A program made the position numbers and the translations under genes. The notes beneath the pieces were generated by a model, which was not told where the DNA came from, did no database searches, and saw only the letters and a program-made list of their open reading frames with translations. A DNA stretch of 39,968 bases from sequence record OQ680138.1; one strand, given 5' to 3'. This document shows, piece after piece, positions 3,377-35,161 of this stretch; the first letter of the stretch is position 1; each line of letters begins with the position of its first letter. This DNA is from Escherichia phage PH1061.

Positions 3377-3399
3377 CCTAAACTATCACTATAGGATTA
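3377..3399 (+). promoter_or_regulatory. Phage RNAP promoter (phi1.1-like), CTAAACTATCACTATAGGA, +1 near 3394
   Basis: Consensus match. Confidence 0.8.
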
Positions 3400-9482: not shown

Positions 9483-11186
<1,704 letters not shown>

Positions 11187-18941: not shown

Positions 18942-18964
18942 ACTAAACTATCACTATAGGGAGA
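18942..18964 (+). promoter_or_regulatory. Phage RNAP promoter (phi10-like, strongest consensus), CTAAACTATCACTATAGGGAGA, followed by a 5' leader stem-loop
   Basis: Full consensus including GGGAGA start; leader GGGAGACC...GGUUUCCC stem-loop resembles the T7 phi10 leader. Confidence 0.9.
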
Positions 18965-19059: not shown

Positions 19060-20103
19060 ATGGCAAACGTTCCGGGTCAGAAAATTGGTACAGACCAAGG
19101 TAAAGGCAAATCCAGTTCCGACGCTCTGGCGTTGTTCCTGAAGGTATTTGCTGGTGAAGTCCTGACCGCATTCACTCGCCGCTCTGTAACTGCTGACAAG
19201 CATATTGTCCGTACCATTCAGAACGGTAAGTCTGCTCAGTTCCCGGTCATGGGTCGCACCTCTGGTGTGTATCTGGCTCCGGGTGAGCGACTGTCCGATA
19301 AACGTAAAGGTATCAAACATACTGAGAAAGTGATTACCATTGATGGTCTGCTGACTGCCGATGTGATGATTTTTGACATTGAAGACGCGATGAACCACTA
19401 TGACGTGGCTGGTGAGTATTCCAACCAGTTGGGTGAAGCGCTGGCTATCGCTGCCGATGGTGCGGTTCTGGCTGAAATGGCTATCCTGTGTAACCTCCCG
19501 GCCGCATCCAACGAGAACATCGCTGGTCTGGGTACTGCGTCCGTACTGGAAGTTGGTAAGAAAGCTGACCTCGACACACCGGCTAAACTTGGTGAAGCAA
19601 TCATTGGTCAACTGACCATTGCTCGTGCGAAGTTGACCTCCAACTACGTTCCTGCTGGCGACCGTTACTTCTACACCACGCCGGACAACTACTCCGCAAT
19701 CCTCGCGGCTCTGATGCCGAACGCTGCTAACTATGCTGCGCTGATTGACCCGGAGACTGGTAACATCCGTAACGTTATGGGCTTCGTTGTTGTTGAAGTT
19801 CCGCATCTGGTACAGGGTGGTGCTGGTGAGACCCGTGGTGACGATGGTATCTCTATCGCTTCCGGTCAGAAACACGCATTCCCGGCAACTGCTACTGGCG
19901 ACGTTAAAGTTGCTATGGACAACGTTGTGGGTCTGTTCTCTCACCGTTCTGCTGTGGGTACTGTGAAGCTGCGTGACTTGGCGCTGGAACGTGACCGTGA
20001 CGTCGATGCTCAGGGCGACCTGATTGTTGGTAAATACGCTATGGGTCACGGTGGTCTGCGACCAGAAGCGGCAGGCGCACTGGTTTTCAGCCCAGCGGCG
20101 TAA
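19060..20103 (+). CDS. 10A: Major capsid protein 10A, 347 aa
   Basis: Size and position of T7 gp10A (345 aa); strong RBS TAGGAGA; followed by a Tphi-like terminator. Confidence 0.95.
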   Translation: MANVPGQKIGTDQGKGKSSSDALALFLKVFAGEVLTAFTRRSVTADKHIVRTIQNGKSAQFPVMGRTSGVYLAPGERLSDKRKGIKHTEKVITIDGLLTADVMIFDIEDAMNHYDVAGEYSNQLGEALAIAADGAVLAEMAILCNLPAASNENIAGLGTASVLEVGKKADLDTPAKLGEAIIGQLTIARAKLTSNYVPAGDRYFYTTPDNYSAILAALMPNAANYAALIDPETGNIRNVMGFVVVEVPHLVQGGAGETRGDDGISIASGQKHAFPATATGDVKVAMDNVVGLFSHRSAVGTVKLRDLALERDRDVDAQGDLIVGKYAMGHGGLRPEAAGALVFSPAA

Positions 20104-20234
20104 GCACCTTTAGCCAACCTAACGTCGCTACAGTAGCGGCTGCACCTGAAGAGGAGACTCTAACTCCTCAACAGAAAGCTGCGCGTACTCGTGCTGCGAA
20201 CAGGGCCGCTAAACTGGCTGAGTCCAACAACTAA
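19060..20234 (+). CDS. 10B: Putative minor capsid protein 10B produced by a -1 ribosomal frameshift near 20082..20088 (GGTTTTC)
   Basis: The -1 frame is open from the slippery site to TAA at 20232..20234, adding about 50 aa (...VSTFSQPNVATVAAAPEEETLTPQQKAARTRAANRAAKLAESNN); arrangement mirrors T7 10A/10B. Confidence 0.55.
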
Positions 20235-20240
20235 TTGAAA

Positions 20241-20277
20241 CCCCTTGGGTGCCTTCGGGTGCTTGAGGGGTTTTTTT
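20241..20277 (+). terminator. Tphi-like late terminator: CCCCUUGGGUGCCUUCGGGUGCUUGAGGGG followed by UUUUUUU
   Basis: Close resemblance to T7 Tphi (AACCCCTTGGGGCCTCTAAACGGGTCTTGAGGGGTTTTTTG) and same position after gene 10. Confidence 0.9.
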
Positions 20278-20298
20278 GCTTAAAGTGAGAGGAGACTT

Positions 20299-20865
20299 AT
20301 GGCTCAATACATTCCACTGAATACTAACGATGACTTAGACGCCATCAACGATATGTTAGCAGCTATCGGTGAACCAGCAGTCCTACAGCTTGATGAAGGC
20401 AACGCTGATGTTTCGAACGCACAACGTATCCTGCATCGTGTCAATCGTCAGGTCCAAGCTAAAGGCTGGAACTTTAATATCAACGAAGCTGCTGTCCTGA
20501 CACCTGATGTCCAAGACAAGAGGATTCGATTCTTGCCGTCATACCTTCGTGTAATGACCGCTGGGGCCACCAGCTACTACAGCAACATGGGTGGATACCT
20601 GTATGACCTATCCACTCAGTCAACCACTTTCACCGACCCTATCACGGTAGAGCTTGTGGAGATGAAGCCATTCTCCGAGATGCCTGTGGTCTTCAGGGAC
20701 TACATCGTCACTAAAGCTAGCCGTGAGTTCAACGCTAAGTTCTTCGGTAGCCCAGAGTCAGAGCTATACCTTCGTGAGCAGGAAGCAGAACTCTATCAGC
20801 AGGTTATGGAGTACGAGATGGACACTGGTCGCTACAACATGATGTCTGACATCGGGAGGGACTAA
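20299..20865 (+). CDS. 11: Tail tubular protein A, 188 aa
   Basis: Size and position of T7 gp11; RBS GAGAGGAG. Confidence 0.88.
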   Translation: MAQYIPLNTNDDLDAINDMLAAIGEPAVLQLDEGNADVSNAQRILHRVNRQVQAKGWNFNINEAAVLTPDVQDKRIRFLPSYLRVMTAGATSYYSNMGGYLYDLSTQSTTFTDPITVELVEMKPFSEMPVVFRDYIVTKASREFNAKFFGSPESELYLREQEAELYQQVMEYEMDTGRYNMMSDIGRD

Positions 20866-34711: not shown

Positions 34712-35161
34712 ATGCTCGAATTTTTAAAGAGAGCGGCTCCGTGGTTACTTGCAGCAGTGATGTTTGCTGGTGGCTACCACACCGCTAACAATAAGTGGGA
34801 GGCTAAGGTCAATGCAGAATACACCTCGAATCTTAAGGCATCGGAAGATACAAGGCTTGCTGTCCAAGCTGAAGTCAACAAAGTGTCCAAGCGGTTTCAG
34901 GACGAAATGTCCTCGCTGGAAGGCAGCACTGATAGGATTATTGCTGACCTTCAGTCTGACAATAAGCGGCTGCTCATCCGAGTCAAACCTACGAGTGGAA
35001 CCACGCAAAGTGACGGTCGATGCGTCATTGATGGTTACGCCGAACTTGACGAACGAGATGCTAAACGTCTTATCGCCATCGGAGTGAAAGGGGACAAGTG
35101 GATTAAGGCACTTCAGGACACTGTGAGGGCCTTGCAGCAAGATAAGGAGGTGACGCATTGA
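34712..35161 (+). CDS. 18.5: Inner-membrane spanin (Rz-like, gp18.5), 149 aa
   Basis: N-terminal TM segment then coiled-coil periplasmic region; position after gene 18. Confidence 0.85.
34812..35087 (+). CDS. 18.7: Outer-membrane lipoprotein spanin (Rz1-like, gp18.7) embedded in the +1 frame of gene 18.5
   Basis: Lipobox LTISGC; [12 protein letters not shown] and [18 protein letters not shown] match T7 gp18.7. Confidence 0.85.
   Translation: MQNTPRILRHRKIQGLLSKLKSTKCPSGFRTKCPRWKAALIGLLLTFSLTISGCSSESNLRVEPRKVTVDASLMVTPNLTNEMLNVLSPSE

Follow-up and report, generated by a model that had tools for sequence, protein, structure and literature searches.

A T7-type −1 frameshift near the end of capsid gene 10 is predicted to yield a 10B protein in Escherichia phage PH1061

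RESULTS

The gene 10 locus

We analyzed a 39,968-nucleotide stretch of DNA from Escherichia phage PH1061 (OQ680138.1), whose full length is referred to below as the window. The features at its capsid locus are listed here in window coordinates.

18947..18964, plus strand: phage-RNA-polymerase promoter consensus ACTATCACTATAGGGAGA upstream of gene 10, predicted to be the equivalent of phi10
19060..20103, plus strand: gene 10A, major capsid protein, from the list of open reading frames (347 aa, 36.3 kDa; stop codon TAA at 20101..20103)
20082..20088, plus strand: slippery heptamer G GUU UUC (Val342-Phe343), proposed as a tandem −1 slip site from its sequence, its phase and its identity with T7
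20088..20234, plus strand: predicted 10B tail, read in the −1 frame for 48 codons (QPSGVSTFSQPNVATVAAAPEEETLTPQQKAARTRAANRAAKLAESNN) up to the stop codon TAA at 20232..20234
20240..20277, plus strand: Tphi-like terminator, hairpin ACCCCTTGGGTGCC-TTCG-GGTGCTTGAGGGGT followed by seven T, with CCCC at 20241..20244

The 10A reading frame matched the Gp10A-like family of Pfam (E = 2e-105) and, among capsid chains in the PDB, 9vvq (E = 3.5e-217) and T7 10A (E = 2.9e-146). The gene 10 region shared 96 to 98% nucleotide identity with Hafnia phage yong1, ST31, SH3, K1F and many others. Over its first 25 kb, the window was ~94% identical to the nearest deposited genomes, and the alignments covered 92 to 94% of this segment. 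These matches indicate that the window phage is a T7-like phage (Autographiviridae) of the genus Kayfunavirus, K1F-like, and the ~94% genome-wide identity to its nearest deposited relatives makes it another strain or species of that genus.

The sequence at 18947..18964 was the sole perfect copy among seven plus-strand promoter matches with at most three mismatches (chance expectation 0.03), and the EcoDS1 record annotates a promoter at the corresponding place. The promoter core ACTATCACTATAGG occurs in seven plus-strand copies in the window, at 3382, 15134, 17959, 18947, 23489, 31697 and 37021. The full consensus ending in GGGAGA was present only in the copy ahead of gene 10, which fits a role for this copy as the strongest late promoter.

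A slippery heptamer and an open −1 frame at the capsid stop codon

An initial annotation of this DNA had placed GGTTTTC just ahead of the capsid stop codon, with a −1 frame open for about 50 codons. Indeed, the motif lies in the phase G GTT TTC, 12 nt or four codons before the 10A stop, and translation of the −1 frame from 20082 gave 50 sense codons (GFQPSGVSTFSQPNVATVAAAPEEETLTPQQKAARTRAANRAAKLAESNN) before TAA. The open stretch of the −1 frame reaches back to 20034 and overlaps the 10A frame by 67 nt. Because it holds no ATG, GTG or TTG across 20034..20234, the tail is reachable only from gene 10. Canonical −1 programmed frameshifting combines a strict X XXY YYZ heptamer with a stem-loop or pseudoknot 5-9 nt downstream. 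The heptamer here departs from that form: its X_XX is G_GU, a relaxed variant documented for T7 gene 10 (PMC5009743).

The predicted 10B is join(19060..20088, 20088..20234), a protein of 391 aa and 40.9 kDa that ends in ...ALVF-QPSGVSTFSQPNVATVAAAPEEETLTPQQKAARTRAANRAAKLAESNN and exceeds 10A by 44 residues (391 − 347). Its tail is rich in Ala and Arg. Two details of the initial annotation needed correction. The junction had been read as ...GFQ; since Val and Phe would be decoded in frame 0 ahead of the slip, the real product would read ...ALVF-QPSG... Likewise, the peptide QPNVATVAAAPEEETLTPQQK, suggested for detection by mass spectrometry (MS), is not tryptic, because the predicted tryptic junction peptide comprises 48 residues (4.9 kDa). 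The other tryptic peptides of the tail would be 2 to 6 aa long; Glu-C or chymotrypsin is predicted to yield the junction peptide AAGALVFQPSGVSTFSQPNVATVAAAPE and the tail peptide TLTPQQKAARTRAANRAAKLAE.

Other classical heptamers occur in phase elsewhere in the window and may be due to chance: A AAA AAT at 10889-10895 in the plus-strand ORF 9486..11186, and T TTA AAG at 34723-34729, four codons into the plus-strand ORF 34712..35161.

We then asked how readily such a pattern arises by chance. GGTTTTC occurs once on the plus strand of the window, with ~2.4 copies expected from length alone. An open frame of 48 codons at the composition of the tail appeared in ~18% of shuffles (P ~0.18). Moreover, extensions of 44 or more codons in the −1 frame are common: 13 of 31 long window ORFs carry one, in most cases because that frame is occupied by the following gene. 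The heptamer and the open frame by themselves are statistically unremarkable. As the raw pattern is not significant alone, the weight of the case comes from homology and from comparative data.

The −1 tail is related to that of T7 10B

BLASTP aligned the window tail with the T7 10B tail at 60% identity (E = 1e-11). When the three frames of the window were paired with those of T7, only the −1/−1 pairing matched (E = 2e-13), and the eight remaining pairings showed no significant similarity in local BLASTP. Synonymous sites were saturated between the two tails (pS 0.84, NG86), with pN at 0.22. Within the core block ETLTPQQKAARTRAANRA (consensus with T7, ETLTPxQxAARTRAANxA), 15 of 18 residues are identical despite 17 nucleotide differences, and 12 of those 17 fall at third codon positions. 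Compared with two relatives that carry T7-type tails, the tail gave dN/dS values (NG86) of 0.24 (L011) and 0.38 (L034).

We estimated selection from these divergent pairs (T7, L011 and L034) because counting substitutions by codon position in the 11 closest relatives was uninformative: substitutions were few, and the C-terminus of L030 is rearranged. Collectively, the alignments indicate that the 10B tail is homologous to that of T7 and that purifying selection has acted on it in the −1 frame. The window tail had no Pfam match at E ≤ 0.1, and the solved structures in the PDB are without the tail.

Slippery motif and −1 tail occur together across relatives

To place the locus in a wider context, we surveyed 66 capsid loci: 60 from IMG/VR, four from GenBank relatives, and those of T7 and the window. 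A locus was scored as having a motif when NGTTTTY or A_AAG was in phase, and the gap was measured from the 10A stop to the terminator. Among the 43 loci with a gap of at least 100 nt, 42 carry a motif (NGTTTTY in 32, A_AAG in 10), and in 41 the gap is occupied by a −1 ORF whose stop lies 0 to 15 nt ahead of the hairpin. In contrast, the 23 loci in which 7 to 52 nt separate the 10A stop from the terminator all lack a motif (Fisher's exact p = 7e-17); their Val codon is the synonymous GTC, GTA or GTG, as in GGTCTTC or GGTATTC. The long-gap exceptions are L009, which has a frame-breaking 1-nt deletion, and L050. GGTTTTC is invariant in all 31 relatives whose tail begins at that site, and all 31 sequences have a −1 tail of 42 to 89 codons, bar one with a 1-nt deletion. 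Across these relatives, the slippery motif and the gap-filling −1 ORF go together or are both absent.

The tails themselves vary. In a group of Kayfunavirus loci (L013, L015-L023, L070, L074 and L075), 10A is ~95% identical to that of the window, yet the tail is an unrelated one of 88 residues (...SYSRRTNSLYFKA...) with no Pfam match, located between an identical GGTTTTC and an identical terminator. This 88-residue tail is disrupted half-way in L014. Other tails contain a Big_2 domain (Pfam E = 1e-8 in L028 and 5e-15 in L033). The lysyl-codon site A_AAG was found in ten relatives, mostly with Big_2 tails; in one of them, L051 (IMGVR_UViG_651703078_000001), an in-phase A_AAG leads into a −1 tail of 177 codons with two Big_2 domains. 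Such comparisons suggest that the 10B tail is exchanged as a module, with the heptamer and the terminator as its fixed anchors.

An extreme case was observed at L043 (positions 1248-2685 of IMGVR_UViG_3300034349_000001) and L059, where the capsid gene ends in CTG GTT TTT ACT CCG GCA GCG TAA. G GTT TTT is in phase there, and the −1 frame is open for 471 codons. Its first part encodes a Big_2 domain (Pfam E = 5e-11); the ~390 aa after it gave no Pfam match, and GDSL/SGNH-like motifs (FEGDSLT, DGTHSN) were seen there by eye. If frameshifting does produce it, this extension would rank as an exceptionally large decoration of the capsid, perhaps with enzymatic activity.

At the opposite extreme, L009 (~2540-2545 of IMGVR_UViG_2974615076_000001) has lost one nucleotide at the 10A stop (GCGTAAGCACC to GCGTAGCACC), which shifts an otherwise intact T7-type tail to the +1 frame. 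Either L009 is a phage that naturally lacks 10B, or the deletion is an error of sequencing. As the tail of this close relative is out of frame, 10B may be dispensable.

Comparison with known 10A/10B systems

Condron, Atkins and Gesteland reportedly described the −1 programmed frameshift of T7 gene 10A/10B in 1991. The T7 record (NC_001604) contains a joined 10B CDS. The initial annotation had likened the window to this arrangement, and the likeness held: the G GUU UUC heptamer is identical, in the same phase and on homologous Val-Phe codons, frame 0 reaches its stop a few codons later, the tails share the ETLTPxQxAARTRAAN core and are related in the −1/−1 pairing only, and a Tphi-type terminator with CCCC lies directly past the 10B stop. 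The two systems differ in several respects. The post-slip tail has 56 residues in T7 and 48 in the window, which is without the EEASVTST insert; 10A ends in KVE in T7 and in SPAA in the window; the distance from heptamer to terminator is ~180 nt in T7 and ~150 nt here; a G-run of T7 is absent here; and the capsid cores have diverged.

The resemblance to K1F, EcoDS1 and Penshu1 is much closer. These phages belong to the same genus and have the same heptamer and terminator; 383 to 388 of the 391 residues of the predicted 10B are identical, including the entire 48-residue tail, and the difference amounts to a few substitutions in 10A. In K1F, a −1 frameshift in gene 10 was reported to add 44 triplets, and fusion of GFP to the 3′ end of g10b produced stable fluorescent phage (Moller-Olsen et al. 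2018, PMC6277420). The 44 triplets agree with the difference of 44 residues between the two predicted products of the window. In the Penshu1 record (MK903281), a joined CDS that ends at the homologous TAA is labelled 'minor capsid protein ... produced by -1 frameshift'; the EcoDS1 record (EU734172) marks a 'region of similarity to gp10B' and adds the remark 'may be translated via slippery sequence'.

Frameshifting at capsid gene ends is also documented outside this genus. In Kluyvera phage Kvp1, MS proved 10B in a 43.6-kDa band and placed a −1 shift at TTTTCA (PMC2579914). Kvp1 belongs to another genus and resembles the window at the level of the slip site, a −1 shift on a poly-U/Phe site near the capsid C-terminus. 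In phages of the T3/phiYeO3-12 type, a −1 frameshift close to the capsid gene's end gives a minor protein with a C-terminal extension (PMC5009743, PMC2579914). That type slips on a lysyl codon and adds an Ig-like extension, in contrast to the short non-Ig tail of T7 type in the window, which has no Pfam domain. We found no MS report of a Kayfunavirus 10B tail in the literature, the SH3 and Hafnia phage papers included. This is expected, given the 4.9-kDa tryptic junction peptide and the otherwise very short tryptic peptides of the tail.

The tail DNA is widespread in sequence databases. A nucleotide search with 129 nt of it found 100% identity in no fewer than 42 GenBank phages; in 67 the identity was 99% or higher. 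Nearly all of these records leave the tail region unannotated, and a joined 10B CDS is missing from most deposited Kayfunavirus records or replaced by a 'minor capsid protein' label on 10A. Separately, the unshifted 347-aa protein is named 'minor capsid protein' or '10B' in PQ133619, OM867676, ~20 Salmonella phage records and PDB 9vvq. Such a label on the 347-aa 10A is a systematic mis-annotation by name transfer.

Candidate stimulators of the frameshift

In T7, ~10% of translations yield 10B, and the bare GGTTTTC of T7-derived constructs gave less than 1% frameshifting in a heterologous context (PMC1635266). Because the bare heptamer was so inefficient there, the efficiency in the window phage is expected to depend on a further element.

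We searched for such an element on both sides of the heptamer. The 60 nt that follow it folded no better than shuffles (z = −0.37), which provides no sign of a local stimulatory hairpin. A global fold contained an 8-bp stem at 20094..20129, the 5′ arm of which is weakened in close relatives with no compensating changes. The full 204-nt region folded better than shuffles (z = −3.95), with the terminator hairpin contributing most. An Rfam scan of 19900..20400 returned sub-threshold chance matches on the terminator only. Inspection by eye for an SD-like stimulator upstream revealed nothing convincing, only GGCAGGCG. Elsewhere in the survey, strong hairpins follow the heptamer in L011, L034, L028 and L010; they are mutually non-homologous.

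The initial annotation had put a Tphi-like terminator immediately behind the −1 stop codon, and this was confirmed: the hairpin comprises 17 pairs at 20237..20274 (core 20240..20271, −21.9 kcal/mol), its core begins 5 nt past the 10B stop, and a T run follows. Its arms are nearly those of T7 Tphi, and the terminator is annotated in EcoDS1, Penshu1 and SP7. The terminator, including CCCC, is conserved in all relatives with every type of tail. Among unrelated tail modules, which range from 44 to 177 codons, the heptamer and the terminator are the only common cis elements, and the terminator invariably begins 4 to 14 nt past the 10B stop. In T7, the CCCC within the terminator was reported to be involved in frameshifting (PMC5009743). 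Given this report and the conservation of the CCCC-bearing terminator, a distal contribution is plausible here, and we infer that a 3′ element such as the terminator may boost frameshifting. A G-run is found 15 to 30 nt past the heptamer in T7, L011 and L034 and is absent from the window and the K1F type, so a long-range CCCC:GGGG pairing, if T7 uses one, is not obviously conserved. The stronger proposal, that K1F-type frameshifting runs without a local stimulator and relies on the terminator hairpin instead, is speculative and, in our judgment, rather unlikely.

These observations bear on whether the tail is expressed at all. The signal and tail might be an inherited relic, unexpressed or negligibly expressed in the window phage, with an inefficient heptamer and an absent stimulator. 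The low activity of the bare heptamer in T7-derived constructs, the lack of a significant local hairpin after it, the missing G-run of T7, L011 and L034 and the frame-breaking deletion in L009 would all suit such decay. However, the heptamer, the ORF and the terminator have each stayed intact, 99% identity or more is seen for the tail DNA in the 67 deposited phages, and selection on the frame is evident at between-genera distance. Furthermore, a GFP fusion to the tail makes virions of K1F, whose tail and terminator are identical, fluorescent (PMC6277420). We consider loss of expression very unlikely.

The tail region is probably protein-coding rather than untranslated RNA

Conservation of the region could instead reflect a non-coding 3′ UTR, an RNA or DNA element in which the open −1 frame is incidental. 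Open frames of comparable length are not rare in composition-matched shuffles, as noted above, and most GenBank records annotate nothing in the tail region. The favorable fold of the 204-nt region would also agree with a structured element, though it stems mostly from the terminator hairpin. Against this, amino acids are conserved relative to T7 while synonymous sites are saturated, third positions take most of the changes in the core block, and the similarity is confined to one frame pairing. In relatives, moreover, the same gap holds unrelated domains such as Big_2 (Pfam E = 1e-8 to 5e-15); without exception they are encoded in the −1 frame and finish 0 to 15 nt ahead of the terminator, a pattern that leaves a non-coding role highly improbable.

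It is scarcely credible that the longer protein arises by transcriptional slippage of the phage RNA polymerase on the T run or at another shift site within 20034..20100: although the −1 frame is open from 20034, such that products of nearly equal size would result from a shift at any point in those 67 nt, the T run is only four long and the homopolymers known to cause polymerase slippage are far longer, GGTTTTC is the sole slippery motif within the frame overlap, the Val codon is GTT wherever the tail begins there and a synonymous non-slippery codon in all tailless relatives, and G_GU is itself a documented variant in T7 gene 10.

DISCUSSION

Our analysis predicts, with a probability of roughly 90%, that the window phage makes 10B by T7-type programmed −1 frameshifting at 20082..20088. 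According to this model, most ribosomes would read ...Leu-Val-Phe-Ser-Pro-Ala-Ala and stop at 20101..20103, producing the 347-aa 10A. A minority would slip one base backward at the heptamer, where the P-site tRNA-Val on GUU and the A-site tRNA-Phe on UUC would re-pair on GGU and UUU. CAG at 20088 would then be the next codon, and 48 residues would be added before termination at TAA 20232..20234. The resulting 10B is expected to co-assemble into the capsid, with its tail probably exposed at the surface. That the slippage is ribosomal and tandem is likely by homology with T7, and the efficiency may be close to the T7 figure of ~10%.

The feature has already been described for near-identical phages and does not extend the T7 10A/10B paradigm. 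For the record of this genome, the annotation should include the joined 10B CDS at the coordinates given above. The precedent of K1F marks the 10B tail as a natural site for capsid display or tagging.

The comparative data sharpen an old question, namely what stimulates the T7-type gene 10 frameshift. On the speculative reading in which the terminator hairpin drives frameshifting, a ribosome terminating on 10B would cover the hairpin's 5′ arm, and frameshifting could therefore be coupled mechanistically to the structure or stability of the mRNA 3′ end. On that reading, the heptamer and the terminator could also anchor the exchange of capsid-decoration modules among these phages.
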